Source of the DNA: Patescibacteria group bacterium
GTDB taxonomy: Bacteria > Patescibacteriota > Microgenomatia > Levybacterales > UBA12049
Reading direction: 5' to 3'
Assembly (NCBI GenBank): GCA_038061615.1
Contig: JBBTYY010000015.1
Location: forward strand, 1,298 to 65,297
DNA length: 64,000 nucleotides
This document shows positions 2,983 to 64,000 of the stretch, in pieces. The position numbers and the translations under genes are program-made. Each line of letters opens with the position of its first letter. Within the stretch, counting starts at the first letter, position 1. A model generated the notes under the pieces. That model saw nothing but the letters and a program-made list of their open reading frames with translations. It had not been told where the DNA came from and ran no database searches.

Positions 2983-2984
2983 TT

Positions 2985-3911: not shown

Positions 3912-3939
3912 GCTCGTATTTTACCATTTCCTAAAGGCT

Positions 3940-5001: not shown

Positions 5002-5004
5002 AAG

Positions 5005-6258: not shown

Positions 6259-6261
6259 TGC

Positions 6262-7583: not shown

Positions 7584-7585
7584 AA

Positions 7586-23120: not shown

Positions 23121-23182
23121 CAATGTTGGTATTATATCATCTTGGTATTGATAAAAATAAGAGCAGAGAATATAATTTCCGT

Positions 23183-45468: not shown

Positions 45469-46510
45469 AAGCCCTAACTGTTTGTTCTGCTGTTTTTTTC
45501 CAGGAAAATTTACCCGATTGCTTAAATCCCGCAGCAGAAAATTCTTTTCTTAATTTTTCATCTTCAAAAACTTCTGTTATGTCTTTTGCTATTTTATCTG
45601 AATCATATGCATCTGTATAAAAAGCCGCATCTCCCGCTACTTCAGGGATTGATCCTTCTTTAGTTGTTATAACGGGACAGCCACATGCCATTGCTTCTAA
45701 GATAGGCAGGCCGAATCCCTCATACAAACTTGGCATTATAAACACGGTTGCCAAATTATATAATACTACTAAGTCTTCTGTTTCAACAAAACCGACCCGC
45801 AAAATATTTTTATTCCCTTCAACTAATTTCTGAACTTCCAATAAATCTTGATTCCAAGGGTTGTTTTTATCAAAGTCGGATGAAACTAGAGTTTTTCCCA
45901 CCATAACCAGTGGAATCCTTGATTTTCTTGCAGCTTCCACTAATCTTGGAAGATTCTTGTTCCATGTAACATCCCCTACATACAAAGCAAACTTTTCCGG
46001 CAAATTATACTTCTCTCGAATTTTCTTAAGTCTTAAGTCATCGGTCTTAAATCTTTTAAATTCTTCTCCTGCGGCCAGATAGATAACTTCAATTTTTTTC
46101 TCACTTACGCCCGTAAATTTAATTATGTCTCTTTTTGAAGATAGTGAATCTGCAATTATTAAATTTGCTTTCCTCAGAGAGGCTTTTTGAATAAGCCACT
46201 TAAAGCCCCCCCTTACTCCTTTTGGGAAATATTTAGGAAAAACCAGAGGCGTTAAGTCATGAACAGTAACTATAGTTTTACATCGATTGAATAGCGGTAA
46301 CGTAATAAAAAATGGCTCGAAGTAAGGATAATGGATTAAATCTGTATCTTTGGATAAATTTTCTCCTCGAACAAAAAAAGTATACTTATTTTTGGGAAAA
46401 TACTTAACCAACGATCTTTTCAGATTGTTAATATAAAAACCAACCCCTCTTACTCTATGCTGAATTAAACCTTTTTTCTCGATTGGTGAAACATCAATAG
46501 CTATTTTCAT
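45443..46510 (-). CDS. GT4 (group 1) glycosyltransferase
   Basis: 355 aa. [33 protein letters not shown] (EX7E motif region). Confidence 0.75.
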
Positions 46511-48156: not shown

Positions 48157-49289
48157 GAAATCTTGATTGTTCCAAGCTTTTTGCTAAATTTAAATTTCCT
48201 ATCAACCGCTAGGTACAAATACAAACAAAGAACTGGAAGGAAGATTAATATAATTTTTAATAATGGAGTTGATCCAGAATATGTTCCGGAAAACATAAAG
48301 GGAGCATAGCTTAAGAGTAAACCAAACGAAATTGCATTTGAGAGATACAGGAGATTCCTTCTTTGAGGTATTAGATATGAAAATACCAAAAACCAAATTG
48401 CATACCATGGATATATCTCTTCTCTAAGGAATGACAAGAAAAAGATCAGCATCATAGATAAGGCGGAAATAAAAAAAACTCTCTCCCAATTTATACTTTC
48501 TTTTCTAATTGTTTTTAGAATTATATAAATAAAAACAGGGAAAAGAAAAATCGTAGAATATTTTATTAATATAGAGGCTATGATAAAAATTAAACTCAAG
48601 AAAATTCTTTTTTTAATTAGAAAATAGAAGGATAAAAGTGCGAAAAACATCATAACGATATCATTATGGGAACTTACTAATGTTTCCATAATAATTAATG
48701 GGCTTAATGCAAATAAGAAAACAGATTTCATATTTTTTGAAATCTTCGAAACTAAAAAGATAGTACCTAGGTAGAATAAAATGACTAGCAGTTTAAAATT
48801 AAATAGAGTAAGAACATAATTATCAAATCCCAATATAAAACTGATACCAGTGATTTTTATCCAAACGGGACCATACAATGCAACTTTATTCACCGCCCTC
48901 GTAAAAATCAAAAGAGGATCGCCTACGAACTCGATGGGCATAAGTATGTATGGATTTTCTCTATAAAAGAACAAAACTTTTGAGGTTGCGATGTAATTAA
49001 ATATATCATAGGAGAGTATTGCAGGGTACGCTAGAAATAAGATACCGGAAGTTACTAGTATTATTTTTTTAATGTTTATACTTTTTTGATATTTTAGAAT
49101 GAGATAATAAAAAACAAAAAATAATAAAACAAAAATAACATACGTCATCGTTGCAATTGTTCTGCTATTTGCTGCAAGCCCGGTGTAAATGTTATGGAGA
49201 TACGATAAGTTTTGATCGGTAAATAGGTAAGAAAAGATTACAAATAAGAAAAGGGTAAAAAAATATACTGGGAGAAATAGCTTCTTCAT
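48153..49289 (-). CDS. DUF2029/GT87-like polytopic membrane glycosyltransferase
   Basis: 378 aa, ~10 TM. SYDIFNYIATSKVLFFYRENPY resembles the GT87 SDDVYRY-WDG...NPY signature loop. Confidence 0.5.
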   Translation of the reverse strand: MKKLFLPVYFFTLFLFVIFSYLFTDQNLSYLHNIYTGLAANSRTIATMTYVIFVLLFFVFYYLILKYQKSINIKKIILVTSGILFLAYPAILSYDIFNYIATSKVLFFYRENPYILMPIEFVGDPLLIFTRAVNKVALYGPVWIKITGISFILGFDNYVLTLFNFKLLVILFYLGTIFLVSKISKNMKSVFLFALSPLIIMETLVSSHNDIVMMFFALLSFYFLIKKRIFLSLIFIIASILIKYSTIFLFPVFIYIILKTIRKESINWERVFFISALSMMLIFFLSFLREEIYPWYAIWFLVFSYLIPQRRNLLYLSNAISFGLLLSYAPFMFSGTYSGSTPLLKIILIFLPVLCLYLYLAVDRKFKFSKKLGTIKIS

Positions 49290-49813
49290 AACGTTTTACT
49301 TCTTATAGCTATAGACGTATCGATAGTTGTCCAAAGATTTAGATTGGTTGGGGTATCTTTCTCCGGCGTCCATTTAAATTTATCAGGAACATTATTTTTT
49401 AATTTTTCAAACTCTTCAATGTGTTTCCTTGAAGCTTCTTTTAAAATTTTCTGTTTTTCGGATGTATTTTTTCCTTCTTTTTTTGCGGAAAGCAAATAAG
49501 GATAAATTTTCTCAAAGTATTGATTGGACTTAAGAAGAGATTTATATGCGAGGAGATATTGTTTATATTCAAATAGGGTTTTTGCTTGCACTAAATATTT
49601 ATCCGAAAGTCTTTGATAATAGTATGACTTACCGAAATTCCCAAAATACCAAAAGTAAGATACTTTTTCTATAACTTGATTAATTGTGTAAAACTTATTT
49701 CCGGGCATTTGTGAAGGATACGGAAGAACATAAGTTGACCCTGCATAAGCAGAAGTCGATAAGTACAAGAAAAAAACGAGGAGAAGTAATGTTTTCCATA
49801 GGCAACTTCTCAT
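49286..49813 (-). CDS. Secreted hypothetical protein (signal peptide)
   Basis: 175 aa. N-terminal MRSCLWKTLLLLVFFLYLSTSAYA signal peptide, Tyr/Lys-rich mature part, no recognisable domain. Confidence 0.45.
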   Translation of the reverse strand: MRSCLWKTLLLLVFFLYLSTSAYAGSTYVLPYPSQMPGNKFYTINQVIEKVSYFWYFGNFGKSYYYQRLSDKYLVQAKTLFEYKQYLLAYKSLLKSNQYFEKIYPYLLSAKKEGKNTSEKQKILKEASRKHIEEFEKLKNNVPDKFKWTPEKDTPTNLNLWTTIDTSIAIRSKTL

Positions 49814-50805
49814 TTTGAATTTTGAATTTTGAATTTTGAATTATTGTTATGCCACTCCCAAGCGGTTTTAACTATTGTCTCTAAGCTTGAATATTTTGGC
49901 TCAAAATTAAGTTCTCGTTTAATTTTTGCAGGATCTGCTATTAAAACTTCTGCGTCCCCTGGTCTTTTATCGGCAATTTTTACTTTAAAATCTATTTCTG
50001 ATACTTTTTTTACCATCTCTAAAACCTCTTTATTAGAATATCCCTTACCGGTTCCGACATTATAGAAAAATCCTCCGTTATCTCTCCCAAGCTTATCCAA
50101 AACAAGAAGGTGAGACTCAACTAAATCTATCACATGAATATAATCGCGAATGCATGTTCCATCCTTCGTATTATAATCATTGCCGTAGAGACTAAGCTCT
50201 GAACCTTCTAAAGCTGCCTTAACAGCAAGAGGAATTATGTGTGTTTCGGGATTATGCTTTTCGCCAAGTCGCGCGTCCAAAGATGCGCCTGCCGCATTAA
50301 AATATCTAAGACTTGCAAAATTTAATCCATAGATCCTGTTATACCATGATAAAATTTTCTCAACCATCAGCTTGCTTTCTCCGTATGGATTTGTGGGATT
50401 TGTCACATGATCCTCGGGAATTGGAATTTTCATTGGATTTCCATAAACACCTGCGGTTGAAGAAAATATAAAAGATCCAACTTTATTTTTTACTGCATTC
50501 TCAATCAGCCTCAATGCCCCAAAAACATTATTCTTAAAGTATATGCTTGGGTTTTCCATTGATTCTGCCATAGAGATGCAACCTGCAAAATGTAGAATTG
50601 AATCAAATTTGTTTTCTTTAAATAAGCTATCGATAAAACTTTCATCTGAAACATCTCCTTCTACTAATCTTGCTCTCGAATCAACAGCTTCTTTGTGTCC
50701 TCGGGACAAGTTATCTAAAACAGTTACCTCATCTCCTCTCTCAAGGAATCTTCTAACCATAAAGCTTCCAATATATCCGGCACCGCCAGTAACAAGTATT
50801 TTCAT
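49810..50805 (-). CDS. galE: UDP-glucose 4-epimerase (GalE-like)
   Basis: 331 aa. MKILVTGGAGYIGS, HFAG, SSTAGVYG, YGESKL and the overall GalE pattern. Confidence 0.8.
   Translation of the reverse strand: MKILVTGGAGYIGSFMVRRFLERGDEVTVLDNLSRGHKEAVDSRARLVEGDVSDESFIDSLFKENKFDSILHFAGCISMAESMENPSIYFKNNVFGALRLIENAVKNKVGSFIFSSTAGVYGNPMKIPIPEDHVTNPTNPYGESKLMVEKILSWYNRIYGLNFASLRYFNAAGASLDARLGEKHNPETHIIPLAVKAALEGSELSLYGNDYNTKDGTCIRDYIHVIDLVESHLLVLDKLGRDNGGFFYNVGTGKGYSNKEVLEMVKKVSEIDFKVKIADKRPGDAEVLIADPAKIKRELNFEPKYSSLETIVKTAWEWHNNNSKFKIQNSK
49812..49839. repeat. (ATTTTGA)x4 tandem heptamer at a gene junction
   Basis: Directly visible. Encodes the C-terminal NSKFKIQNSK of the GalE-like gene and overlaps the start of the downstream gene. 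Confidence 0.9.
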
Positions 50806-50813: not shown

Positions 50814-50841
50814 AGCCTTAAAGACTTAAGACTTAAGACTT
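50814..50841. repeat. (AGACTTA)x3 + AGACCTA tandem heptamer filling the intergenic spacer
   Basis: Directly visible between the galE start codon and the stop of the four-helix-bundle gene. The same TAAGACN/AAGTCTT heptad family recurs at 42363-42397, 51208-51235, 51682-51716, 59957-60023 and 61662-61749. Confidence 0.9.
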
Positions 50842-51216: not shown

Positions 51217-52014
51217 TTAAGTCTTACGTCTTAAATACTTTACATACGCTACGGGAAATCGAAGGGAAGAAAAAAGAGAAAACACAAATCCCGGCCAGAG
51301 ATCCATAAAACCTTTATGTCTGAAATAAGTAATCAAAAACCAATGCGGAGGTTTTAAGAACACAAGTCCCAACCCATACAAAATTTTTTGAAATCTGTTC
51401 TTATTTTTAAGTTTATCTTTGGTTTGGCTTGAGATAAGACCTGTATATCTGCTCCATTTCAATATATATTCAGAAAAATCTTTGTAAGGATAATGCAATA
51501 ACGCTTCATCTAAATATCCCACTTCGCCATCTACCTCCGCCTGCTCATGAACATCTTTTTGCGGAAGTCTTCCTCTGCCTCTTTTATAGAGTCTTAAGGT
51601 GTAATCCGGATATTGCCCTCCTTTTAATAAAAACCGTCCCAAAAACCAATTTTTTCTGGGAATCCAATAACCGTTGATATCAGACTTAGGACTTAAGACA
51701 TAAGACTTATGAGATAAAATTTCTTTAATTTCATTTGCAAGTTCAGGTGTAACTCTTTCGTCTGCATCAAGCTGAAGTATCCAATCACAAGTTGCCATAT
51801 CAATTGCCATCTGTTTATTAATATGAAAAACGGGTTTGTTTGTTGTTATTTTTATCCTTGCCCCAAATTTTTTGGCAATTTCAACAGTTTTGTCTTTTGA
51901 TGAACCATCTACCACAACTATCTCATCGGCAATATCTTTTATACTGTTAAGACATGCGGAAAGATTATTTTCTTCATTATATGTTGCCAAAACCACGGAA
52001 AGAGTTTTTCCCAT
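51217..52014 (-). CDS. GT2 glycosyltransferase
   Basis: 265 aa. LSVVLATYNEENNL, IVVVDGSSKDKT and QLDADE (DxD). Confidence 0.75.
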   Translation of the reverse strand: MGKTLSVVLATYNEENNLSACLNSIKDIADEIVVVDGSSKDKTVEIAKKFGARIKITTNKPVFHINKQMAIDMATCDWILQLDADERVTPELANEIKEILSHKSYVLSPKSDINGYWIPRKNWFLGRFLLKGGQYPDYTLRLYKRGRGRLPQKDVHEQAEVDGEVGYLDEALLHYPYKDFSEYILKWSRYTGLISSQTKDKLKNKNRFQKILYGLGLVFLKPPHWFLITYFRHKGFMDLWPGFVFSLFSSLRFPVAYVKYLRRKT

Positions 52015-52026: not shown

Positions 52027-53679
52027 CTAAGAAAGCCTCATTTTTACAAACTTAAACAATAAGAAACCTATTATATTGAGGCTAACTACTATAGATATGG
52101 CATCGGATAGCGCTCTGATCTTTGTTTCTTTATAGTATACCTCCACAAGGTAGCTACCCTTGTCTAATCTAAATGTCATGATTCCACGATAATGAGGATC
52201 TTGAAATTCCATATCCACAGATTTTTTGTTTGCAAAAATATTCCAGCCGGGAAAATATAAAGTATTTTCCGCAAATAATGTCTTTCCTAAAACATCAACG
52301 TTATATAAATGATATGTTGAAATTCTTTTTAATTCTTTTACAGTCGCTTTACCGTCTAAAACTTCCAGATGAGTCTTCGGTCTTTTTTCCATAAACCGTA
52401 CAGACCAAATTGGTGCGCTTTCTCCTGTATCTGTAGTACTGTTGTAAATACCCGTAAAAAATTCATCTGGATTTTGCAGATATCCGTTTGCCCTTACATA
52501 GTCTTTACTTTGAAACAAAATAATTAGAAGAAGCAAAACAAAAATTATTTTTTTAAATTTACTTGGAACCGCAGAAATAAAATATGCTCCCAAAACTGAA
52601 GTCGTAAAAACTATTACTGCTAAAAAACGCCAGGGAAATTGGAAGTTTTGAAGAAGAATAAATTTTGACCAAATAAAATTAGATTCCTTAAACATTAAAA
52701 ACAAAGCAAAAAAGGAGATTATAATTAATACTGAAATCAGAGTGTAATTTTTATTTTTCTTTCGATAATAATGAAATAATGCAAAAGGTGAGAAGAGCAA
52801 ACTCAACCATGAACCTATACCAAACTGAACGGTAAATTGCCCCGAGCCTCCATAGCTCCAAGAACTGTAAAGCAGATCTTTTAAATTAACAAACCGGGTT
52901 ATGTAACTACCTTTAGTAACAATATTTCTTAAAGTATATTTCCCTTCCATAAGACCAGGAATCCAAAAAAACGCAGAAAGCGAAAAACCGATCAGTATTA
53001 AGAATAAGGTATTAAGTATTAAGTATTTATTAAATTTCGATAACCAAATAAGATAGAAACAATAAGCGAGAATAAATGGTACTAACATTAAGCTTATTGC
53101 GTTGTGGGATAAAATTAGAAGAGCCAAGGATATAGCTCCAAAGATAGAATATTTATATTTTTGATCCTTATATAACTTATATAAAAAGTAGAGAGTGAGC
53201 GGGATAAATGCAAAAGCTAAATTCTCTCCAATATCTCCTCTGACGTACAAGTCAACAAATCTATAGGGAGCATAAGTGTATAAAATAGCGCCTAAAACCG
53301 CAGGAATTTCTCCCAAAAAAGAAGAAAGCCATAAATACATAAAAGCCAAAGACAAAATCATCCCTAAGCCAAAAACAATTTTTACAGAATCAACCAAGGA
53401 AAAACCTACAAAGTGAAAAAATGAAGCGATGTAAGACGGCAGGGGGTACAAAAACTCCAAGATCGGATGCCCGTAGCCCCAATTTAAATTCCCTGCCCAT
53501 CTTGGAATAATGTTTCCTTCCGAAAGATTTTGATAAAAATTGGCAATTCTTGCAACATGATCCTGCCCATCATGCGTAATCGGAAGACCGGCAGAGAGCA
53601 ATGATACTACAGGCAGGATAGCAAGAACAATGAGAGCTATAAAGATTGCTTTATTTTTTATTAGTTCCATAAACTTCAA
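52027..53679 (-). CDS. PTPS-related (PF10131-like) polytopic membrane protein, paralogue of 46507..48156
   Basis: 550 aa. AGLPITHDGQDHVARIANF...IPRWAGNLNWGYGHPILEFLYPLP, ~10 TM, and a C-terminal periplasmic domain. Includes a heptad tract at 52994-53028. Confidence 0.65.
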   Translation of the reverse strand: MKFMELIKNKAIFIALIVLAILPVVSLLSAGLPITHDGQDHVARIANFYQNLSEGNIIPRWAGNLNWGYGHPILEFLYPLPSYIASFFHFVGFSLVDSVKIVFGLGMILSLAFMYLWLSSFLGEIPAVLGAILYTYAPYRFVDLYVRGDIGENLAFAFIPLTLYFLYKLYKDQKYKYSIFGAISLALLILSHNAISLMLVPFILAYCFYLIWLSKFNKYLILNTLFLILIGFSLSAFFWIPGLMEGKYTLRNIVTKGSYITRFVNLKDLLYSSWSYGGSGQFTVQFGIGSWLSLLFSPFALFHYYRKKNKNYTLISVLIIISFFALFLMFKESNFIWSKFILLQNFQFPWRFLAVIVFTTSVLGAYFISAVPSKFKKIIFVLLLLIILFQSKDYVRANGYLQNPDEFFTGIYNSTTDTGESAPIWSVRFMEKRPKTHLEVLDGKATVKELKRISTYHLYNVDVLGKTLFAENTLYFPGWNIFANKKSVDMEFQDPHYRGIMTFRLDKGSYLVEVYYKETKIRALSDAISIVVSLNIIGFLLFKFVKMRLS

Positions 53680-54946
53680 TCCCTTTTTTTCTCATTAAAT
53701 AATAATATACATAAGATTCAGGTACTCCGGCCTGGAATCCTATTTCTCTTCCTTCACGAATTGCTTTTTTTACTGTTTTTTCTCTATCATATAAACCAAC
53801 GTCCTTATAGGAAATAATAGTATTTAATCCGTTTATGGAATAACCTAGAATAAAAATTATAATAACTATTTTACCTAGCAAAAACTTTGTAGTAAAGACA
53901 AGATTTATAAAGTAAACAATAATAAGTAGCGCAATAAATCTATTTACTGCAAAGTAGTAATCACTTATCTCCCCACTATACAATGAAAAAATTACCCATG
54001 GTACTAAAAACCACAGAGCGATAAGGTAACAGATTTTTTTTGCTTCTAAGCTTGTATTCTTCTTAAGATATATCAGAAAAAAAAGAGGAACTAATATAAT
54101 TTTTAAAGGCTTGAGCCTCTCAAGTAAAATATAGGGATCAAATTGTATTAGAGCATCTCCAATCAATTGGGACATTCTTCTTAAATGAAATCCATGATAA
54201 GCATCAGAGAAATAAGCTGTGTTGGAAATATAGTTCTTGCTAGCAATTAAATAAATTATATTTGGTGTAATACTTGCTATCAAAATTGAAATTGCAATAA
54301 ATCCGTATTTTAATGTCTCCCTGGTCCTTGGAAACAAGGGTAATGAAAATAAAATTATCAGAGAAAAGAATATTGAAGTGAAATGGAGACTAAAAGAGAA
54401 ACCTACTGCAATAGATAATGGAATTATTTTTTTTACATCCCCCAAGGTTATCTTATAAAGAAGGTGGAAGATTAATAACGATACCGTTGGTAAAAGCTGC
54501 ACTGGCCATTGAACCCTATCAAACATAATCGCATTAAAACTAAAAGAATTTAACAACAGTGCGATAATTGCTGCCTCAAGGGACAAAAGTTTTTTAAAGA
54601 TAATAAATATCATCCAAAATGTAAAAATACCAGAAAATACTGCAATTGCCTGAGATGCAATAGGGTTTAAATTAAAAATGAAGTAAAAAAAAGACACAAT
54701 GTAATAGTATAGAGGTCCTACATATACTCCGCTATTTGCCTTTGCAACCATACCAACCAATGGAAATTTATGATTGACAATTATATTCATAGCTGCCCAA
54801 GCATTATCCACCTGATCATATCCGAAAGGATTTTTTATATCGAGCTGATATGTTCTTGTAAAAAGATTAAGCAGAAATATAGCAGAAATTACTAAAATAA
54901 TTTTATTATTTTTCAATAACTTCAAGTATTTTTTAATTTTTTTCAT
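53651..54946 (-). CDS. ArnT/GT83-like GT-C membrane glycosyltransferase (tandem paralogue 1, shortest)
   Basis: 431 aa. FGYDQVDNAWAAMNIIVNHKFPLVG...GPLYYYI at the N-terminus parallels the FGFDQGRDY...HKLTLIG...GPFYYY of its neighbours. ~11 TM. Lacks most of the C-terminal soluble domain. Confidence 0.55.
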   Translation of the reverse strand: MKKIKKYLKLLKNNKIILVISAIFLLNLFTRTYQLDIKNPFGYDQVDNAWAAMNIIVNHKFPLVGMVAKANSGVYVGPLYYYIVSFFYFIFNLNPIASQAIAVFSGIFTFWMIFIIFKKLLSLEAAIIALLLNSFSFNAIMFDRVQWPVQLLPTVSLLIFHLLYKITLGDVKKIIPLSIAVGFSFSLHFTSIFFSLIILFSLPLFPRTRETLKYGFIAISILIASITPNIIYLIASKNYISNTAYFSDAYHGFHLRRMSQLIGDALIQFDPYILLERLKPLKIILVPLFFLIYLKKNTSLEAKKICYLIALWFLVPWVIFSLYSGEISDYYFAVNRFIALLIIVYFINLVFTTKFLLGKIVIIIFILGYSINGLNTIISYKDVGLYDREKTVKKAIREGREIGFQAGVPESYVYYYLMRKKGIEVYGTNKK

Positions 54947-56456
54947 CTTCTTCTATCCGCTTTTGAATTATAAATCCGCTCGGTAAAGTTTTTGTATAAA
55001 CAACATCACCGGTTTTGATAACAGTCTCGAGCCAGCCTTCATAAGTCCATGGCTTATGAGGATCGGGCTCGATCAAAAGATAAAATACTCCTTTTTTTTC
55101 ATTATGAGGAATATAACCATATTTTTTTTGCCCATGCCACCAAAGTAAATAATCATAAGGATAAGTATATATTGGAGGAGTAAAAATTAGAAGTTCAAAC
55201 TTTTCTCCCTTGGCATCTTTATAAATGTAATCTATTGCATCAATTTTTCCTTTTACTTTCGCAGTGCCTCCATAATCAAAATAGTCTCTTGTATAGACAT
55301 TTACTGTATAAGAAAAATATACTGCAAAAAAATAAAAAATTATTACAAAAAAGGTTATCTTACCCAGAAGATGTTTTCTAAAAAAATAGATAAGAATAAT
55401 TCCTATAAGAAAACAATAAAATATGTATAACTGTAAAGCCCACCATGTCCACATGTGATCTTTATAAATCATGAAAATAGCAAAAAGTAAAAATGGATTT
55501 GAAACAAGGTAAAAAACAAAAGCTTTTTTTTCAAATACTTGATTTTTGTCTTTTATAAATAAGATGCTACCCAGCACCAAAATTAAAGCAATAATTTGCC
55601 AAAACTCACCAATAAAGGGAAACATTGATGAAAAGCTTGATGAGAAAATTGCGAAATGATTCATGAAGATACTCTCCGCAAGCTTGTTTGCTGTCGGGGA
55701 ATTAAGTGAAGGGAATAATAAATTCATTATTCCTTTTGTATTTAGAAATTCATGTCTCAAGTCAAAAATTATAAGCGGCAGGAGGGGTAAGAGAAAGCCA
55801 ATGATAAATCTGAGTAAAGACCTTCCTGTTATAATTTTTTTCCAAATTAGAAAAGGCACAAATAAAATTGATTGAAAAAGAAGACTTCCGCTAGTTGCGA
55901 TTTCAAAATGAGATATAAGACCAATGGTAAGACCTAAGAATCCCAAGTATTCTTTTTTACCCTGCAGTATTTTATAAATGAAATACAGAAAGAATACTGA
56001 TAAAAGAGATATAGGAAATGGAGGCCATATAAACCTAGACTGAGCAATTATATTTGGAGAAACCGCAATTAAAAATCCTATTATAACTCCTTCCTGCCAG
56101 CTAAATATTTTCTTAGTGAGGAGTATTGCGGAAACAACCGTAGCAATACCAATAATTAACATCAAAACCATCCCCCCATACGGATCTCCCCCAAAAATAA
56201 TAAAGGGAATTGCAAGTAGGTAATACCAACCCGCTCCTTGAAAAAATCCTCCGATCCCGCCCACTTGAGTTCCAATTAAAGTTAATTTATGATCAACAAC
56301 AATTTTTTTGACATCATTGTAGAATTGTCCTTGATCAAATCCAAATAAATAATTCCCGCTTAAAACTTCAACGGATCTTGGAATTAAGGCAAGTACTAGA
56401 ATAAAAATGCTAATTAATAAAAATTTTCTTTTAATTATTTTTTTAATTATTTTCAT
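54933..56456 (-). CDS. ArnT/GT83-like GT-C membrane glycosyltransferase (tandem paralogue 2)
   Basis: 507 aa. FGFDQGQFYNDVKKIVVDHKLTLIG, GDPYGGMVLM, ~11 TM. C-terminal periplasmic domain DAIDYIYKDAKGEKFELLIFTPPIYTYPYDYLLWWHG is shared with paralogues 3 and 4. Confidence 0.7.
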   Translation of the reverse strand: MKIIKKIIKRKFLLISIFILVLALIPRSVEVLSGNYLFGFDQGQFYNDVKKIVVDHKLTLIGTQVGGIGGFFQGAGWYYLLAIPFIIFGGDPYGGMVLMLIIGIATVVSAILLTKKIFSWQEGVIIGFLIAVSPNIIAQSRFIWPPFPISLLSVFFLYFIYKILQGKKEYLGFLGLTIGLISHFEIATSGSLLFQSILFVPFLIWKKIITGRSLLRFIIGFLLPLLPLIIFDLRHEFLNTKGIMNLLFPSLNSPTANKLAESIFMNHFAIFSSSFSSMFPFIGEFWQIIALILVLGSILFIKDKNQVFEKKAFVFYLVSNPFLLFAIFMIYKDHMWTWWALQLYIFYCFLIGIILIYFFRKHLLGKITFFVIIFYFFAVYFSYTVNVYTRDYFDYGGTAKVKGKIDAIDYIYKDAKGEKFELLIFTPPIYTYPYDYLLWWHGQKKYGYIPHNEKKGVFYLLIEPDPHKPWTYEGWLETVIKTGDVVYTKTLPSGFIIQKRIEEDEKN

Positions 56457-56459
56457 AAA

Positions 56460-57956
56460 TTAGTGCGTTCTCGTTTGAACTACAATTCCCCCTTTTACTG
56501 TTTTTTCTTTTTGTATTATTCCATCGTCTTCTCTATCTCTTAACCAATCTTTTAATCTAAATGGCAGATCGTAGTCGGGCTCCAGTATTACATAGAGTAA
56601 TCCAGTGTTTTTTTGGGAAGAGATATAGCTATATTTCTTTTTTCCATACCATGAAAACAAGTATCTATAAGGATAATCGTGTACGGCTGGTGTATAAACA
56701 ATATATTTAAAATCTCTTCCCTTTGCATCATTGTAAACGTAATCAATAACAGCAACTTGATTACGATATACTGCGGCATTTCCCTCCCATAAAGGATCTA
56801 TAATATTGTCTAAAACCCGCATGGGATTTAGATTAATCCAAAATAAAACAAACAACATAAGGAAAATAACCCAAGATTTTCTTAAGACAATCCTTGTTGT
56901 ATTAATAGCTATGCTTACAAGAAGGATATAGAAAACCGGAACACCAACAAGATAATGGGGCCAAATAGCTTGATTAAAGAAAATAAAGCTTATCAAAAAA
57001 ATTATAACTATGATAGCTATAGTTTGTATGAATTGTTTCTGCGTATTTTCCATCTTTTTATAAAAAAACAACAAGCTTAAGAAAACGAATGTTATCAAAA
57101 TAAAACCAACCATACTACTTTGTCCTGCTAATGTAGCACTCCATGTGTTAAATAAAGGACTTAGCCTGCTAAAGAGTTCATCAAAAATAGAAAAATGCTT
57201 AGGTAGCATGAATCCGTTGCTAAAAGCGCTAATAAATGTCTTTGTCATCAAAAAATCATGCCGAACCTCAAAAATAATCCGCGGAGAAAAAATAAATAAT
57301 AATCCTAAGACAAAAAAAGGTATTTCTTTTATTCTCAATCTTTTTCTAAAAACAAGAATTAAAGACATGCAGGTACCCAAAAAAAATAGGATTCCAAATA
57401 CTATTTCCAGATCTATGATAATCCCTAAGAACAAACCAAGTAGTAAAAAATATTTTGCTTTAGAAGTTTTAGGTTTACTATCAAAAGAGAACGCATAAAG
57501 CATCAGGAAGACAAGCAAAACAAAAAAAGGTATTAGATTTGGATTCCATATTTGCGAAGAAGACAGAACCATTATGGAAGAAATACTAATAAAAGCAGAA
57601 AAAATTATTCCTAAAAAAACTCCGCCTATCTTTTTTCCAACAATATAACTTAGTAGAATAGTGATAATTCCCATAAACCCCATGAAAAATGCAATTCCCT
57701 GTGGATTACCGGAAAAGATAAAAAATGGAATACTTAATATATAGTACCACCAAGGCCCATAGAAAATACCTTCTATCCCTGTTGTTTGTCCAATAAGGGG
57801 AATTCTATGATTTACTACTATATTTTCAACAGCAATCATGTCTCGTCCGACATCGTAAGTAAATGCAAAAGAATTATCTATAATTCCGCTTAATCTAAGC
57901 CAAGATCCAATTATTAATATAATCAGGAGCCCTAAAACAACAAACGTTTTTTTCAT
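56460..57956 (-). CDS. ArnT/GT83-like GT-C membrane glycosyltransferase (tandem paralogue 3)
   Basis: 498 aa. FAFTYDVGRDMIAVENIVVNHRIPLIG and a C-terminal VIDYVYNDAKGRDFKYIVYTPAVHDYPYRYLFSWYG domain. Confidence 0.7.
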   Translation of the reverse strand: MKKTFVVLGLLIILIIGSWLRLSGIIDNSFAFTYDVGRDMIAVENIVVNHRIPLIGQTTGIEGIFYGPWWYYILSIPFFIFSGNPQGIAFFMGFMGIITILLSYIVGKKIGGVFLGIIFSAFISISSIMVLSSSQIWNPNLIPFFVLLVFLMLYAFSFDSKPKTSKAKYFLLLGLFLGIIIDLEIVFGILFFLGTCMSLILVFRKRLRIKEIPFFVLGLLFIFSPRIIFEVRHDFLMTKTFISAFSNGFMLPKHFSIFDELFSRLSPLFNTWSATLAGQSSMVGFILITFVFLSLLFFYKKMENTQKQFIQTIAIIVIIFLISFIFFNQAIWPHYLVGVPVFYILLVSIAINTTRIVLRKSWVIFLMLFVLFWINLNPMRVLDNIIDPLWEGNAAVYRNQVAVIDYVYNDAKGRDFKYIVYTPAVHDYPYRYLFSWYGKKKYSYISSQKNTGLLYVILEPDYDLPFRLKDWLRDREDDGIIQKEKTVKGGIVVQTRTH

Positions 57957-57972
57957 AGATTTGGATTTCTCT

Positions 57973-59508
57973 TTATTCTTTAAATAAACGTTTCTGAATA
58001 ATAAAACCGCTTGTAAGTTGTTCTGTATTTATAACATCACCATCTTTTATCACAGTTTCAAGCCATCCCTGATAGCTCCATGGTTTTGACGTATCTTTTT
58101 CAATAAGAAGATACACAAGTCCTTTTTTCTCCTGATGTGGAGCATAGCCATATTTTTTCTTTCCATACCAAGAAACAAGATAATCATAGGGATAAGTATA
58201 TATAGGAGGACTAAATACCAGTAATCCAAATCGTTCTCCATCAGCGTTTCTATAAATATGATCTATCGCATCGATTTTTCCTCTAATTTTATGGGTTCCG
58301 CCATAGTCAACGATATCATAATAAAACGTTTTAATATTAGAAAAAATACTAGATAACAATACGATTGCTATAAATATAATGATAAACCCATCTACTATCT
58401 TATGTCGCGTTTTAAAAATAGATGCAATGGCGAAAACGACTAAAAATATATAGGCAAGATTAAGATGAATGAGATAATAATTGTATACAAAGTTTCTCAA
58501 AAATCCTAAAACAATAAATGTAACGGGTATAAGAAGCAAAAGATACAAAATAAATTTCTTTCTTTCTTTATCTTTCTCTTTTATAACAAAATAAAAAATG
58601 ATAGGAATAATCGTAATAATTGCTATTGAAGGAATAATGATTTGCGAAGGGAATGTAGACAAAAAATTATTAAAGAACACCAGTAGATGATCACGTAAAA
58701 GCAACACCCAAAATGCTTGCGTCGTTGCAGTCTCTGGATGGTTGAAAATATAAATCGAAAGTCCTTTTATCGCTTGGAATCCATGACGAATTTCGAAAAA
58801 AAACATAGGTGAAAAAGCCAGAATCGTTCCAAGAAATAATACTCCATACTGCTTAATGTGTTTAAGCTTGAGTACCAATACGCAATATATGAAGAGAGTA
58901 AGAAATAAGGGAATTGCTATCGCCAATTGAAAATTGTATACAAAACTTGAGAAAAAGGAAGCCCAAAAAAGGTATTTTGTTCTTCCTTTTTTAGTAAAGA
59001 GGAATACGAAATAAAATCCAAGCAAGATAAATAATGGCGCGGGATTAGAATTCCAAATAAACCTTGAGTACGAGATAAAAGGCGGGGAAACTGCAATTAT
59101 GGTTGCTATTAACAATCCAACTTTTGCTCCAAAGAGCCTCCTTCCGATAATATAGCAAAAAAAAATCGTTGCAATTCCTAATATAAACATCAATACCATT
59201 CCCCCATAAGGATCTCCCCTAAAAATTATGAAAGGCAATGCAAGTAAATAATAATAAAAAGGTCCATGGAAAATACCCCTAAATCCAGCAACACCCGCTC
59301 CTATTTCTGACCCAATGAGAGTTAACTTATGATCTACTACGATATTTTTTACCGCAAGATAATCTCTTCCCTGATCAAATCCAAAAAGAAAATTTCTATT
59401 TACAACCTCCACCGACCTTAAAGCTATACCTGAAACAAGTACGAAAAAAAATAATATATAAATAAAGGACTTAAAATTTACAAACTTATAAAATATATTT
59501 TTCTTCAT
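57973..59508 (-). CDS. ArnT/GT83-like GT-C membrane glycosyltransferase (tandem paralogue 4)
   Basis: 511 aa. FGFDQGRDYLAVKNIVVDHKLTLIG, GDPYGGMVLMF and a C-terminal AIDHIYRNADGERFGLLVFSPPIYTYPYDYLVSWYG domain. Confidence 0.7.
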   Translation of the reverse strand: MKKNIFYKFVNFKSFIYILFFFVLVSGIALRSVEVVNRNFLFGFDQGRDYLAVKNIVVDHKLTLIGSEIGAGVAGFRGIFHGPFYYYLLALPFIIFRGDPYGGMVLMFILGIATIFFCYIIGRRLFGAKVGLLIATIIAVSPPFISYSRFIWNSNPAPLFILLGFYFVFLFTKKGRTKYLFWASFFSSFVYNFQLAIAIPLFLTLFIYCVLVLKLKHIKQYGVLFLGTILAFSPMFFFEIRHGFQAIKGLSIYIFNHPETATTQAFWVLLLRDHLLVFFNNFLSTFPSQIIIPSIAIITIIPIIFYFVIKEKDKERKKFILYLLLLIPVTFIVLGFLRNFVYNYYLIHLNLAYIFLVVFAIASIFKTRHKIVDGFIIIFIAIVLLSSIFSNIKTFYYDIVDYGGTHKIRGKIDAIDHIYRNADGERFGLLVFSPPIYTYPYDYLVSWYGKKKYGYAPHQEKKGLVYLLIEKDTSKPWSYQGWLETVIKDGDVINTEQLTSGFIIQKRLFKE

Positions 59509-59530
59509 GCCTATTAGTAGATTAATTATA

Positions 59531-61255
59531 TTATTTATCGACCACTCTTATTGCTGAAGATTTATCGGGATAGTCAATCCTTGTGATGGTATGGAATTCT
59601 TCAGCAAAATCATCTTGACCTCCAACTAGTAATATATTATTTTCTTTTTCAGTGTAGTAATTAAAGGATCTAAATTCAAAAATATCAAATTTATTGCCAC
59701 CTTCTTTAAATCCTCCTGATCTTGTACCACCTTGACTTAAATATTTATATGGATCATATTTTGAATAAAATAGAAAAAACATATATGACTGATCCATTAT
59801 CCCCACATTCGAGACGATTATCTTATTGTAATTTTTATGAATAGGCGCAATAAAATCTACTATTTCCTTGTATCCATATTGCCAATACTTCGCATGAAAA
59901 TAATTTTGCTGAACAAAGTACTGATTAAGATAGTAAACAAAGTTTACTACAGTAAATAAGACGTAAGACGTAAGACCTAAGATTAATAAATATTTTCTTA
60001 AGTCATAAATCTTAAGTCTTAAATACGAAGCTCTGACGGAATAAAGAATTTGAATTATTCCTATTGCAGTAAACACCTGAAAAGTAGGAAGAAAGTTTAA
60101 GGTGCGAACCGCATGAGGGACTCCGCTTGTGATTGAAGCCGGAATTGGAGCAATCAAAAACCAGGAGAATATAAATAATTTTGTTTTTTTATCAAATTTG
60201 CCAAAAATCAAACCATAGATGCCTATAAAAAAGAAAGGAAATTCAAATAAGTACAAAAGTCCCATATTTGGCGCGTGATGCCTTGATATGTCTCCTGTAA
60301 TGAATAGCCAATTTAAATCTAAATGAGATAGATAGCCTCCGGCTACATATTTTGCGAATTCTATTCTACGATTATCTAAGACTAATCCCAAGATGTCGTT
60401 ATTTGCTTTATCTCTTGCAATTTTTTCTGTATTTGCCTCAATTATTGAAGCGTTCGAAAAAATACTAACTCCCTTAGCCCTAGAAAGCGCATCCTTATTT
60501 GTTAAGGTAAAAAGAATCAATGGCAGACAAATAATTGTAAAGATTATGAGTGATATGTATATATATTTTTTTCTTATTGAAAAAAACTCTTTTCTAAAAG
60601 AGGATACAAGAATAGCTATCAGAAGAGGAACGAAAACTTTCTCGCTTTGATATACATGAAGACTCAATCCCAACATCAAAGCACTTAATAATAAAAACCA
60701 TGGTTTTTTAAAGGCTTTTAGGAAAAACAATATTCCAAAAACATTTAGAGCCACACCAACGTTTGCCTCAAATGCAACTCGGGAAAATTGAATATGCCAT
60801 GGAGAAATTGCAAGAAGGAAGGCTGATAGCAGCGCTATCATCTCAGTATTTAGTATTTTGTATTTAGTATTTTGTATTTGTTTAGGATTTAGAATTTCGG
60901 ATTTTGGATTTGTTTTGAACAACTCTTTAACCAAAAAGTAAGTAGCAATTACAGCAAGCACGCCAAAAACTGCCGAAGGAAGCCTTACAGCAAATGTATT
61001 TAAGCCAAATAATGCAACTGCAGGAATAGAAAAATATGCGTAAAGAGCAGGTTTGTAGTCATCAAAAGACCTAAGAACAATCGGCAGAAACTTACCGTAC
61101 TCGTCTCTTCCTGTATGCAAAAGAGAGTAGGCATTGTAACCTAAGGCAACTTCGTCCCAGTCAGGAGAAATTGGAACTTTTCCAAAATCCCAAAGTCGAA
61201 GAATTGCCGCTGTGAACAAAATTAAGCCCAAGATTATCAAAACTTTCTTATTCAT
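59531..61255 (-). CDS. PMT/ArnT-type (GT39/GT83-like) GT-C membrane glycosyltransferase (second-family paralogue 1)
   Basis: 574 aa. The N-terminal loop WDFGKVPISPDWDEVALGYNAYSLLHTGRDEYGKFLP carries a DE motif and a ~45 aa first periplasmic loop as in ArnT/PMT. ~12 TM and a C-terminal soluble domain. Contains heptad tracts at 59957-60023 and 60845-60914. Confidence 0.75.
   Translation of the reverse strand: MNKKVLIILGLILFTAAILRLWDFGKVPISPDWDEVALGYNAYSLLHTGRDEYGKFLPIVLRSFDDYKPALYAYFSIPAVALFGLNTFAVRLPSAVFGVLAVIATYFLVKELFKTNPKSEILNPKQIQNTKYKILNTEMIALLSAFLLAISPWHIQFSRVAFEANVGVALNVFGILFFLKAFKKPWFLLLSALMLGLSLHVYQSEKVFVPLLIAILVSSFRKEFFSIRKKYIYISLIIFTIICLPLILFTLTNKDALSRAKGVSIFSNASIIEANTEKIARDKANNDILGLVLDNRRIEFAKYVAGGYLSHLDLNWLFITGDISRHHAPNMGLLYLFEFPFFFIGIYGLIFGKFDKKTKLFIFSWFLIAPIPASITSGVPHAVRTLNFLPTFQVFTAIGIIQILYSVRASYLRLKIYDLRKYLLILGLTSYVLFTVVNFVYYLNQYFVQQNYFHAKYWQYGYKEIVDFIAPIHKNYNKIIVSNVGIMDQSYMFFLFYSKYDPYKYLSQGGTRSGGFKEGGNKFDIFEFRSFNYYTEKENNILLVGGQDDFAEEFHTITRIDYPDKSSAIRVVDK
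60845..60914. repeat. Ten consecutive 7-nt-periodic units (agtattt agtattt tgtattt agtattt tgtattt gtttagg atttaga atttcgg attttgg atttgtt)
   Basis: Directly visible. Lies inside CDS 59531..61255 and encodes NPKSEILNPKQIQNTKYKILNTE in the first periplasmic region. Confidence 0.85.
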
Positions 61256-62979
61256 AATTCATAGGCAACAAGAGTTGGCTCTCCGTTTAAAAGATAAAAC
61301 GTTTTTAAAATTTTTGCGTTATTAGGTGTATTTTGTGCAGAATTTACGTAAAGAACTTTTTTATTTGATACATCTTTTAAATCTTTTAAGAAACGGTATT
61401 TGCCATATCCTTTCACATTTACAAAACCAAAAACTTCTCTTTCAACCTTTGCGGTTTTTTTAAATTCTCCGGGGGGGGTTTTTGTATAAAATAAATAATA
61501 AATATAAGGCCTGCCCAGCTCGGTAGTAATATTTATTTGGTCATAATTGCCATAAACACTTGATACATAATTGATAGATTCTTTATATCCATATTGCCAT
61601 TCACCCGAATATATTCTTTTGTAGTGAACTAAATAGTCATGATAGAAGTATAAAAAGTTTATAAGAAGTAAGACGTAAGATATAAAACTAATTGTTATAA
61701 ATAATTTCCCTTTTAGAAAATTCTTAAGTCTTAAGTCATAAGTCTTAAGTCCTGAAATGAAATGATAGAATCCATAAGCTGTGAGGATCTGAAATGTTGG
61801 TAAGACAGTCTCAATTCTTAAAGCATGGGGCGTTTCTCTCGCTGTTGCTGCCGGAATAATGCCGACAATAAGCCAGATAGGAATTATCCACCATAAACCC
61901 TCTCTTTTTCTAATTAAGAATAAAATGCCTGCTATGAAAAAAGGAAGATCCCATAAAAACATTTCTCCGACTGTTTGAGTGGAAAATTTAGGATTACCAT
62001 CGCCCCTTATGAACAAAAAGTTGGGGCTTAGGTTATCGAAATAATGTTTTATATATTCAACCCCATAAACAAGTCTTCTGTTGTGAATTAGTTTTGACCA
62101 AAAAGCGTTATTATCATTTGCAATTTCTTGGTTTGATGTTTTAATTACGTTTATATCCGAAAAAATATTTACCTCTTTAAAACGGAGACTCGCTTGCGGA
62201 GTCAAGATAAATTGCGCAAGGGGTATAATCATAATTAAGCCGATCAGGGAAGCTATAACAACTTCTTTCTTTCTATCAAAAAGTTCTTTCCTAAAACCTA
62301 TTGCCAAACCCAAAATAAGAAGCGGTGCCACAACTCTTGCGGTATTGAATGTATACATTGACAAAATAAAAGAAATTACAGAAAGAGAAAGCAATAATAA
62401 AAACCTTAACCCTAGGGCGTCAATAGGTTTCCACCCCCGGGGTGGAAACGAGGCTGCACCTTGGGATTTTACAGAATTTACTGCGGTTAGAAACAAAAAA
62501 ACACCCAAGACAATAAAAAATGTGGCAACATTTGCTTCGAATGCGGCGCGGGAAAGCATAATATGCCAAGGAGATATCGCAAGTATTAATGCTGACATTA
62601 GGGCATAAAATTCTTTTAATTTTGATTTCCAAAAAATTCTTTTGACTAAAAAATAAGTTGCAATAACCGTTAATACTCCAAACAGAGCAGAGGGAAATCT
62701 AACCGCAAATTCATTAAGTCCGAATATTTTAACAGGTAATACATCTAAATAAGCATAAACCGGAGGCTTGAAGTCTCCAAAAGATTCAAGGTAATCAAGA
62801 GGTAAAAATCTTCCGAATTCATCTCTACCATCAATCCCTATTGAGTAAGCATTATATCCCCAAGCCGCCTCATCCCACGTGAGAGAAGGAGGATTATTGC
62901 CTAGCTGATAAAATCGCAGGAAAAAAGCTAAAAAAATAATTCCAGCAAGAATAATAAATGTTTTGCTTCTAATACTCAT
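61252..62979 (-). CDS. PMT/ArnT-type GT-C membrane glycosyltransferase (second-family paralogue 2)
   Basis: 575 aa. YQLGNNPPSLTWDEAAWGYNAYSIGIDGRDEFGRFLP. Same architecture as 59531..61255, with an ATGA overlap. Confidence 0.75.
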   Translation of the reverse strand: MSIRSKTFIILAGIIFLAFFLRFYQLGNNPPSLTWDEAAWGYNAYSIGIDGRDEFGRFLPLDYLESFGDFKPPVYAYLDVLPVKIFGLNEFAVRFPSALFGVLTVIATYFLVKRIFWKSKLKEFYALMSALILAISPWHIMLSRAAFEANVATFFIVLGVFLFLTAVNSVKSQGAASFPPRGWKPIDALGLRFLLLLSLSVISFILSMYTFNTARVVAPLLILGLAIGFRKELFDRKKEVVIASLIGLIMIIPLAQFILTPQASLRFKEVNIFSDINVIKTSNQEIANDNNAFWSKLIHNRRLVYGVEYIKHYFDNLSPNFLFIRGDGNPKFSTQTVGEMFLWDLPFFIAGILFLIRKREGLWWIIPIWLIVGIIPAATARETPHALRIETVLPTFQILTAYGFYHFISGLKTYDLRLKNFLKGKLFITISFISYVLLLINFLYFYHDYLVHYKRIYSGEWQYGYKESINYVSSVYGNYDQINITTELGRPYIYYLFYTKTPPGEFKKTAKVEREVFGFVNVKGYGKYRFLKDLKDVSNKKVLYVNSAQNTPNNAKILKTFYLLNGEPTLVAYEL

Positions 62980-63000
62980 GCAATCTCTTTTTTTGTTTAA

Positions 63001-64000
63001 TTAATTTTTATAAATCTTCCAAACGGTATGCAGGGGCTCTCCTACTTGAATTATTGACTTTATCGGCTCGGTTGTGGTTTCTTTGTAACAGTCACCAGGA
63101 ATCACATACAAAGTATTTGGAGGCAGGTAAATTCTTGGGTCAAATGGTTTATTGTATGTTTTTATACAATTGCCGATAAAATAAATATTTTCCAGTCTTT
63201 TACTTCTATATGCGGCCTGAACTATATTTGGATCTTCACGATTAAAAAGCGCATACTGCATAAGCAATCCTCCTTCATTAGCGATATAAACTTGTTTATA
63301 GTTGTCTTTCTCTTGCGCAATGTATTCACTGACATCTCTTGAACCTCTCAACCATGCCTCTGCGCCATAAATACTATATCGATAATGATATTGATAGAGA
63401 TATCCTGTTATTAAAAATGCGTATAGTAAAATAAAGGCGCTTGTGAAAATGGCTGAATAAATTTTTTCTATCTTCCTAAGCCTTGCAAACATTTCATATA
63501 TTCCACATCCTACAATAATAGATAGGAATGGCAACATCATTATGCTTCGCAATCCATATGATTTATCAATGGTAATTGTTGATGGAATGGGAGCGATTAG
63601 AAGACCAAGAATGAGAAAATTTCTTATTTTTTTTGTACGCAAAACATAAGCAATACCAAAGAACAATAAAGGAAGCTCAATAATATACATTATTCCCCTA
63701 TTGCTAATACCAAAAACCTCTTTACTATCCCCAATCTCGCCATATAAAAAAAGATACTGTGGTGAAAATGCCTCAAGATAATTTTCTCGTATTATACGTA
63801 GAAAGGCTAAAGGCTTATTGCTAAATATATTGCGTAAAATAAGAGGAGCAGTGTTGTAAGTTCGTTCTGTATTGATTAAATTTGTAATCTCGCTAGTATT
63901 TTTTGTAAGAAGAACTTTTTGTCTATTTACATTCTGTGCATAAAAAACATATAAAAAAGATGAAGCTATTAAAATTATCCCTGCTATAAAAATAAACATT
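63001..64000 (-). CDS. C-terminal part of a third PMT/ArnT-type GT-C paralogue (N-terminus beyond the window end)
   Basis: Its 332 aa visible portion aligns with the C-terminal halves of the two preceding proteins (PIPSTIT, LRSIMMLPFLSIIVGCGIYE, and a C-terminal soluble domain). The Met at the window edge is probably internal. Confidence 0.65.
   Translation of the reverse strand, partial: MFIFIAGIILIASSFLYVFYAQNVNRQKVLLTKNTSEITNLINTERTYNTAPLILRNIFSNKPLAFLRIIRENYLEAFSPQYLFLYGEIGDSKEVFGISNRGIMYIIELPLLFFGIAYVLRTKKIRNFLILGLLIAPIPSTITIDKSYGLRSIMMLPFLSIIVGCGIYEMFARLRKIEKIYSAIFTSAFILLYAFLITGYLYQYHYRYSIYGAEAWLRGSRDVSEYIAQEKDNYKQVYIANEGGLLMQYALFNREDPNIVQAAYRSKRLENIYFIGNCIKTYNKPFDPRIYLPPNTLYVIPGDCYKETTTEPIKSIIQVGEPLHTVWKIYKN

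Follow-up and report, generated by a model that had tools for sequence, protein, structure and literature searches.

We describe here a row of eight consecutive genes for polytopic glycosyltransferases of the GT-C type, located at positions 52027-64000 on the minus strand of a 64 kb stretch of DNA (the window) from a Candidatus Levybacteria metagenome-assembled genome (MAG) of Hainich groundwater (Microgenomates, candidate phyla radiation). Judged by their profiles and predicted structures, the encoded proteins are members of the PMT_2/ArnT/PMT clan of membrane glycosyltransferases and have the GT-C fold. They belong to three paralogous families, named here famB (three copies), famA (four copies, one of them without the C-terminal domain of the others) and famC (one copy). 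Together with three candidates just downstream, the GT-C genes number 11 within 20 kb. Sequence comparison with related genomes indicates that the array is an old, retained and lineage-wide block, and we lean towards the idea that its enzymes would build a lineage-specific envelope glycopolymer or lipoglycan outside the membrane. GT-C genes and their GT39-like annotation were already known; the novelty lies in the conserved multi-GT-C block and in its implication for the envelope. An earlier sequence-only reading of this DNA had proposed a tandem array of seven paralogues in two families, with one end of the run at 53651. The seven open reading frames (ORFs) were found as placed and their paralogy goes far beyond chance, but the row continues past 53651 into 52027-53679, which also encodes a GT-C protein, so that eight genes in a row and three families have to be recognized.

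GT-C identity of the array proteins

Each array protein shows the GT-C architecture, a polytopic core with an acidic loop after the first transmembrane segment, and most of them end in a soluble C-terminal domain. Four exceeded the gathering threshold of the Pfam model PMT_2 (PF13231, 26.1 bits): g61252 with 44.9 bits, g59531 with 43.0, g57973 with 38.7 and g52027 with 31.5 (genes are cited by their first coordinate, see Table 1). Three of the four famA proteins, g53651 (24.0 bits), g54933 (21.2) and g56460 (17.5), scored below this threshold and were assigned to GT-C because of their homology to g57973 (E 3e-12 to 2e-117) and their predicted fold. Only g61252 passed the Pfam model PMT (PF02366), with 51.8 bits over its N-terminal part (model positions 4-155 of 245); g59531 reached 17.2 bits for a cut-off of 22.7, and famA and famC gave no match. 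No PMT_4TMC or MIR domain was found by Pfam at E <= 0.1 in the eight proteins, which leaves membership among the true bacterial Pmt enzymes (GT39) unsupported. Strict ArnT (GT83) membership is ruled out, as the best score against the NCBIfam ArnT equivalog PRK13279 was 19.3 bits (g61252) for a cut-off of 567 and the other proteins did not match it. Other NCBIfam matches, to Agl23, archaeal STT3 and ArnT, were weak and below threshold. The ArnT/PMT-like label given by the sequence-only reading is thus appropriate for the fold and the acidic first loop but not as strict membership in GT83 or GT39. NCBI names these proteins 'glycosyltransferase family 39' or 'phospholipid carrier-dependent glycosyltransferase'.

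Structure prediction agreed with the profile results. The AlphaFold2 model of g57973 had a predicted local distance difference test score (pLDDT) of 90.3 and a predicted TM-score (pTM) of 0.89, and that of g61252 had values of 78.1 and 0.81. When full-length famA was compared with solved structures by Foldseek, ArnT was the top match (E 5e-7, TM-score 0.57). The fold matches as a whole were limited to catalytic GT-Cs, including AftA, AftB, AftD, EmbA and PimE. Transporters of the major facilitator superfamily (MFS) gave TM-scores of ~0.1 against the famA model with probabilities <= 0.1. No profile search assigned the proteins to transporters, and a transporter or otherwise unrelated family is ruled out. 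In an hhalign comparison, the core helices of famA and famB were linked with a probability of 96.4% (E 1e-9). Searches of solved structures by sequence returned nothing meaningful for famA (a spurious designed-repeat match), only ArnT for famB (E 0.008), and no match for famC or for a 1228-aa protein encoded elsewhere in the window.

The acidic first-loop motif is invariant in the alignments, as D45 across 35 famA sequences and as W35-D36-E37 across 32 famB sequences. Neither of the results that the sequence-only reading had named as refuting it, an assignment to transporter families or the lack of this motif, was obtained. Every copy in the window retains its first-loop acidic residues: an invariant Asp in famA and in famC, where it stands in T-H-D-G, and Asp-Glu in famB. 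The sequence-only reading had attributed a DE motif to three famB genes; two carry it within the window, but the N-D-E of the third lies beyond the window end. This third gene, famB-3, is complete on a longer contig (L001, 136-1770, 544 aa, with a precomputed PMT_2 match) and also has the motif SPWH..SR..YD. In GT-C enzymes such as ArnT, PMT, ALG and Emb/Aft, a sugar linked to polyprenyl phosphate is transferred on the non-cytoplasmic face of the membrane, and the first-loop Asp or Glu acts on the acceptor or the donor. From the Lys/Arg-rich N-termini and the fold superposition we infer that the acidic first loop of the array proteins would lie outside the cell. The N-terminal motif that had been pointed out in the four famA genes, and a second motif after it, were recovered in all four (Table 1). 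The C-terminal motif ID[YH][IV]Y..A.G..F...[FY][ST]P....YPY.YL..W.G is likewise present in three of them and not in the 431-aa gene.

The paralogues within the window are 25-42% identical. Based on blastp searches, famA pairs share 30-42% identity over ~490-510 aa (E 3e-53 to 2e-117); g57973 is 41.7% identical to famA-3 (g54933, E 2e-117) and 30% identical to famA-2 (g56460, E 3e-74). The short copy, famA-short, aligns with the famA N-termini at 27-32% identity over 131-190 aa (E 1e-12 to 1e-14). In famB, g59531 and g61252 are 38% identical (E 1e-100), and full-length famB-3 shows 28-29% identity with both over ~500 aa (E 1e-47 to 1e-49). The single famC gene of the row has a paralogue, famC-2, among the genes that follow (Table 1).

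The C-terminal domain of famA forms a compact alpha/beta unit in the model of g57973 (~400-511). In the famA alignment, its conserved block IDYIY...YTYPYDYL..W.G contains several invariant aromatic residues. Pfam has no match for this domain. When 1.84 billion representative proteins were searched exhaustively with HMMER, it turned up in 434 clusters at E <= 1e-3. In full-length matches it was always placed at the C-terminus of proteins of ~470-525 aa that belong to famA itself, and the remaining matches were shorter proteins, probably fragments. On this evidence the domain is private to the family. Since it sits where ArnT has its periplasmic domain, a role in positioning the acceptor is plausible. 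The orthologues of famA-short (402-458 aa, in 29 loci) consistently lack the domain, and famA-short is a stable subfamily of its own. Overall, famA is best described as an uncharacterized GT-C family restricted to Microgenomates, with a private C-terminal domain and mostly sub-threshold Pfam scores.

Conservation and layout of the block

We scanned one genome per GTDB species with a famA profile and obtained 77 loci. ORFs were called in all of them and classified with hidden Markov models built from our alignments; the counts given for the block refer to the 40 loci of at least 20 kb. The loci come from Levybacteria, Gottesmanbacteria, Roizmanbacteria, Daviesbacteria and other Patescibacteria, and the close homologues carry the names Candidatus Levybacteria or Levyibacteriota. 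Many of the loci (L009, L010, L018-L021 and others) belong to third-party annotation MAGs titled 'uncultured Gammaproteobacteria bacterium', which is evidently a placeholder or a mislabel.

As the earlier reading had proposed, related genomes were compared for synteny, and both the block and its order recur. At least five GT-C genes are present in 34 of the 40 loci and at least seven in 27, with a median of 8 and a maximum of 11 per ~21 kb. The recurrent order is famB (two to four copies), famA or famA-short (one to four), famC, the family 2 glycosyltransferase gene GT2x, in some cases another famA, an MptA/B-like gene and again famC. In 24/40 loci, two famB genes are direct neighbors and famC lies next to GT2x. 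With the exception of the third famB gene, each paralogue of the window has orthologues at least 45% identical in 10-45 loci (45 for famB-2 and 34 for famC-1). In one related locus (L005), six of the seven paralogues compared have orthologues 50-77% identical (73% for famA-2), and nothing close was found for the third famB gene. Because these values exceed the 25-42% identity found among the paralogues of the window and the order is kept, the copies are old and retained, and the array is an old lineage-wide block. The existence of orthologues for each copy in a conserved order rules out a recent tandem duplication or a hypervariable locus, and the idea of a recent local diversification has to be replaced by old duplications. 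In the complete Levybacteria chromosome CP066685.1 (762,565 bp), the ten GT-C ORFs of the block take up ~16 kb, about 2% of the genome.

All genes from ~24 kb to the end of the window are encoded on the minus strand. From 64000 down to 52027, the distance between neighboring array genes is -29 to +22 nt, and similarly tight spacing on the same strand (-29 to +34 nt) extends down to 42421. This co-directional spacing makes a single long transcription unit likely, and the array is the upstream half of a long block that probably forms one operon. No tRNA genes were found in the window. A 117-aa ORF with a GTG start runs antisense inside famA-2 (57145-57498, plus strand) and has almost certainly arisen by chance in AT-rich sequence.

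Proteins identical to those of the window are encoded on 39-79 kb contigs from Hainich well H52 (filter fractions of 0.1 and 0.2 um) as well as in NCBI assembly GCA_964366505.1. The four independent assemblies that contain the locus (L001-L004) all end within ~0.6-1.8 kb of g61252 on its upstream side, in the third famB gene or shortly beyond it, which suggests a repeat or a strain-variable region; related genomes often carry extra GT2 or GT-C genes at this position. In assembly H52_02um_R1 (L004, 2326-4050) the orthologue of g59531 was called as two ORFs of 331 and 208 aa. The DNA there is 99.97% identical to the window and has no indel, which points to a nonsense single-nucleotide polymorphism in part of the population or to a sequencing error.

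Possible role in envelope glycan assembly

Bacteria of the candidate phyla radiation have strongly reduced genomes, and a life attached to host cells is assumed for most of them; we know of no information on the envelope glycans of this lineage. The investment of ~2% of a reduced genome in the block, in similar order across Microgenomates, implies a product with a central role in the envelope or in cell-cell contact. In the mechanism that we propose, cytoplasmic GT2 enzymes would load single sugars onto polyprenyl phosphate, and the lipid-linked sugars would then be flipped across the membrane. Each GT-C paralogue, by means of its first-loop carboxylate, would transfer one sugar in one linkage to an acceptor growing on the outer face, with the soluble C-terminal domains positioning this acceptor. 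The GT-C set could in this way work as a production line that assembles and branches a lineage-specific envelope glycopolymer or lipoglycan outside the cytoplasm. Distinct linkages are favored over eight redundant copies of one activity. An acceptor of the glycopolymer or lipoglycan kind is favored because an MptA/B-like member and a Wzx-like flippase are present, Leloir glycosyltransferases are numerous and PMT-specific domains are lacking. None of this would change GT-C enzymology: there is nothing unusual in the fold, in the catalytic loop or in the way donors are used. Precedents for systems composed of a polyprenyl-phosphate-sugar synthase, a flippase and a GT-C enzyme are described in PMC11127046, and the same three-component logic also appears in PMC8035078.

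Candidates for the supply of lipid-linked donors were found at the other end of the window. The product of g2985 matches NCBIfam ArnC (E 3e-43, over positions 8-291 of 316) and PgfS (7e-36) and, among solved structures, ArnC 9hwj (E 1e-39) and GtrB 5eke (E 4e-27), both over the full length. ArnC and GtrB load a sugar onto undecaprenyl phosphate, and g2985 is a candidate that could provide a lipid-linked monosaccharide for the GT-Cs. The adjoining EamA transporter gene may encode a flippase for the lipid-linked sugar, through a putative link to ArnE/F-type flippases. A search for the GtrA family gave no match among the ~56 window proteins scanned. Both genes are part of a minus-strand module at 1884-8707, which also encodes a dehydratase/epimerase, a C-methyltransferase, a cupin, a sugar formyltransferase and a DegT aminotransferase. 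The module resembles a pathway that makes a formamido, possibly C-methyl-branched deoxy-sugar and passes it to a lipid carrier.

The array differs from each of the closest known systems. ArnT itself (GT83, undecaprenyl-phosphate-L-Ara4N:lipid A transferase, PDB 5EZM/5F15) is 10-13% identical to the array proteins and is a single gene in the arn operon, whereas the array is a multi-paralogue row; moreover, the C-terminal domain of famA has no detectable sequence relatives outside the family. To our knowledge, candidate-phyla-radiation bacteria have no lipopolysaccharide, so no lipid A acceptor is expected. The GT39 PMTs (yeast Pmt1/2/4, actinobacterial Pmt) differ from the array proteins in having MIR or PMT_4TMC domains and in placing their soluble domain in loop 5 instead of at the C-terminus, and famA and famC have a single Asp in place of the DE pair of PMT. 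A parallel is offered by the mycobacterial GT-C set (EmbA/B/C, AftA-D, MptA/B, PimE), which makes arabinogalactan and lipomannan/lipoarabinomannan (LM/LAM) from decaprenyl-P-Araf and polyprenyl-P-Man. There, as proposed for the array, many GT-Cs use few lipid-linked donors to make a polymer outside the membrane; AftA, AftB, AftD, EmbA and PimE are among the fold matches, and the conserved block contains an MptA/B-family member. The similarity is nevertheless at the level of the fold only, with 8-12% identity and no orthology. In the array, the genes form one compact operon-like block within a genome of ~0.8 Mb (the complete relative CP066685.1 has 762,565 bp), and no DprE or UbiA-type genes for a decaprenyl-P-arabinose pathway were identified in the window.

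Several observations weigh against a polymer-building function or leave it less secure. The nearest solved enzymes share 9-16% identity with the array proteins, so that donor and acceptor cannot be read from homology, and the famB model is moderately confident (pLDDT 78). Co-transcription is deduced from gene spacing only, and a scan for promoters and terminators gave numbers equal to the shuffled expectation (83 vs 87 and 12 vs 11.7, respectively) and is silent on the limits of the operon. The sole clear polyprenyl-phosphate glycosyltransferase is encoded ~50 kb away from the array. In addition, GT2x resembles GmaR and SunS and not ArnC or GtrB, which would fit a protein acceptor equally well, and famB has a PMT-type DE motif and includes the protein that passed the Pfam PMT model. 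These last two features are what would be expected if the paralogues were protein O-glycosyltransferases (PMT, TMTC or PgfM-like) in which each copy, or each heteromeric pair as in Pmt1-Pmt2, moved a sugar from a polyprenyl-phosphate donor to Ser/Thr residues of different secreted or surface proteins (S-layer, pilins, adhesins) and no polysaccharide were made. Such an activity is a serious alternative, although we consider it less likely than the assembly of a polymer.

It is also conceivable that the array decorates a glycan assembled elsewhere: a backbone made by GT2 and GT4 enzymes would be exported by the Wzx-like flippase, and each GT-C would add a different side-branch sugar, as Gtr-type enzymes do. 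The parts for this are in the window (the ArnC/GtrB-like GT2, EamA and Wzx-like candidate flippases and many Leloir glycosyltransferases), together with pathways for unusual formamido, amino and C-methyl sugars; a decoration precedent is given in PMC11127046, and the copy number differs between genomes (famA 1-4, famB 2-4). The three-component systems (GtrA/GtrB/Gtr-type GT-C, CsbB/GtcA/YfhO, GT136) share the GT2-flippase-GT-C logic, and the window has a full-length GtrB/ArnC homologue, with YfhO-like or PTPS_related proteins in it and in related loci. However, in the known systems one GT-C has its own GT2 and flippase, whereas here 8-11 GT-Cs stand in a row without individually paired partners in the window and share no more than one or two candidate lipid-sugar synthases. 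The three-component modules are also mobile or serotype-specific, while the order and the orthologues of this block are kept across family-level lineages and over a class-level lineage. Decoration of this kind therefore seems to us improbable. Even more so is the view that some or all copies have no glycosyltransferase activity and are transporters, Agl23-like flippase-associated proteins, scaffolds or decaying duplicates. The weak NCBIfam matches to 'flippase activity-associated protein Agl23' (E 1e-6 to 3e-5, 23-28 bits for a cut-off of 126), the three famA copies below the PMT_2 threshold and the premature stop in the g59531 orthologue of one assembly could be cited for it. Yet all copies are intact ORFs with invariant first-loop acidic residues and orthologues in many species, their fold matches are to catalytic GT-Cs and not to transporters, and Agl23 itself belongs to a GT-C-like clan, so that a match to it is compatible with the GT-C fold.

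The assembly of an envelope glycopolymer or lipoglycan thus remains the reading to which we incline. A broader version of it, which we put forward tentatively and with less conviction, is that Microgenomates (Levybacteria, Gottesmanbacteria and relatives) make a major envelope heteropolysaccharide or lipoglycan, built for the most part outside the membrane by about ten dedicated GT-Cs from one conserved operon. It would be an analogue of mycobacterial arabinogalactan and LAM synthesis that arose independently in ultra-small bacteria whose genomes are below 1 Mb, and the famA domain would be a new acceptor-binding module. We found no characterized homologue and, within an incomplete coverage of the literature, no paper on such arrays for the candidate phyla radiation, Patescibacteria, Microgenomates or Levybacteria; a paper on Hainich groundwater members of the radiation does not mention glycosyltransferases. 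Like the sequence-only reading, we infer that the array may represent an undescribed surface glycosylation system. The block defines a testable gene set, with three GT-C families (one of them with a domain that lacks a Pfam model), a conserved GT2 and an MptA/B-like enzyme, and it can be used as a lineage marker.

Genes following the array and other features of the window

The coordinates of the array genes, of those that follow them and of the putative donor-supply genes are given in Table 1.

Table 1. Array genes in transcription order, downstream genes and candidate donor-supply genes of the window
Feature	Position	Strand	Description
famB-3 (g63001)	63001..64000	-	C-terminal 332 aa of a 544-aa GT-C; first gene in transcription order; cut by the window end
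famB-1 (g61252)	61252..62979	-	575 aa; first-loop W35-D36-E37; soluble beta-rich C-terminal domain, ~aa 460-575
famB-2 (g59531)	59531..61255	-	574 aa; first-loop D-W-D-E; PMT_2 43.0 bits
famA-1 (g57973)	57973..59508	-	511 aa; FGFDQGRDY loop (aa 42), invariant D45; HKLTLIG; alpha/beta C-terminal domain, ~aa 400-511
famA-2 (g56460)	56460..57956	-	498 aa; FTYDVGRDM loop (aa 32); HRIPLIG; C-terminal domain; retains the invariant residues of the famA alignment
famA-3 (g54933)	54933..56456	-	507 aa; FGFDQGQFY loop (aa 38); HKLTLIG; C-terminal domain
famA-short (g53651)	53651..54946	-	431 aa; GT-C core with FGYDQVDNA (aa 41) and HKFPLVG; no C-terminal domain
famC-1 (g52027)	52027..53679	-	550 aa (547 aa from the gene callers' ATG); T-H-D-G first loop; Pfam PTPS_related 41.5 bits, PMT_2 31.5 bits
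GT2x	51217..52014	-	265 aa; soluble GT-A (family 2) glycosyltransferase; Pfam Glycos_transf_2 73 bits
NAD-dependent sugar epimerase/dehydratase	49810..50805	-	Pfam Epimerase 196 bits; same position in L005, 66% identical
DUF5667 protein	49286..49813	-	175 aa; DUF5667 33.6 bits; orthologues in L005 and L006; between GT-C genes
MptA/B-like polytopic GT-C candidate	48153..49289	-	378 aa; in most related loci
famC-2 (g46507)	46507..48156	-	549 aa; Pfam PTPS_related 63.7 bits; 33.5% identical to g52027, E 4e-83
PIG-V-like GT-C candidate (tentative)	44344..45468	-	374 aa; ten hydrophobic segments
Wzx-type polysaccharide flippase candidate	43029..44351	-	440 aa; Polysacc_synt_3 38.1 bits, Polysacc_synt 35.1 bits
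ArnC/GtrB-type polyprenyl-phosphate glycosyltransferase (g2985)	2985..3911	-	308 aa
EamA/DMT transporter	1884..2759	-	291 aa; Pfam EamA 141.6 bits, two repeats; adjoins g2985

Downstream of the array, GT2x follows famC in most of the related loci. Its closest solved structures are GmaR, a flagellin O-GlcNAc transferase (6e-12), and SunS, a peptide S-glycosyltransferase (7e-10), a similarity in sequence that hints that a protein or peptide may be one substrate of the system. A function of GT2x as lipid-sugar synthase is unsupported, as the protein lacks a membrane segment and is best matched by GmaR and SunS rather than by ArnC, GtrB or DPMS. The MptA/B-like protein (48153-49289) had no Pfam match at E <= 0.001 and matched TIGR03459, alpha-(1->6)-mannopyranosyltransferase A, with E 6e-8 and 31.9 bits for a cut-off of 439; its orthologues in L005 and L006 carry precomputed PF26314 (MptA_B_family) matches. 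The PIG-V-like candidate (44344-45468) scored 21.5 bits against Pfam Mannosyl_trans2, for which the cut-off is 22.4. Two genes for '23S rRNA-intervening sequence protein'/bAvd-like four-helix bundles (50840-51202 and 41159-41527, minus strand, 143 and 109 bits) lie within the run of co-directional glycan genes, one of them directly after GT2x.

The entire 64 kb forms a glycan island. In addition to GT2 and GT4 Leloir transferases, it encodes at least eight NAD-dependent epimerases/dehydratases, three DegT-type aminotransferases, a sugar formyltransferase, a cupin isomerase/epimerase, an RmlC-like protein, two C-methyltransferases and other methyltransferases, a nucleotidyltransferase, a split transketolase and the Wzx-like flippase. 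The transketolase is divided into two genes (24384-26128, minus strand), one for the N-terminal half that binds thiamine pyrophosphate and one for the pyrimidine/C-terminal half. They lie in a sugar-modification cluster and may act in the synthesis of a branched-chain or higher-carbon sugar. At 13607-23225 (minus strand), three very large membrane proteins of 728, 1228 and 850 aa are encoded, for which no Pfam, NCBIfam or PDB sequence match was found. Two of them, g15790 and g20673, are 47% identical, the N-termini of the large proteins have a G-G-D motif after the first transmembrane segment, and g13607 and g20673 resemble famC (g46507) over a short C-terminal stretch; the large proteins may be additional GT-C-like enzymes. 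At the end of the island opposite the array, a gene at 286-897 (minus strand) encodes an NYN-domain protein, a predicted RNase unrelated to glycan synthesis.

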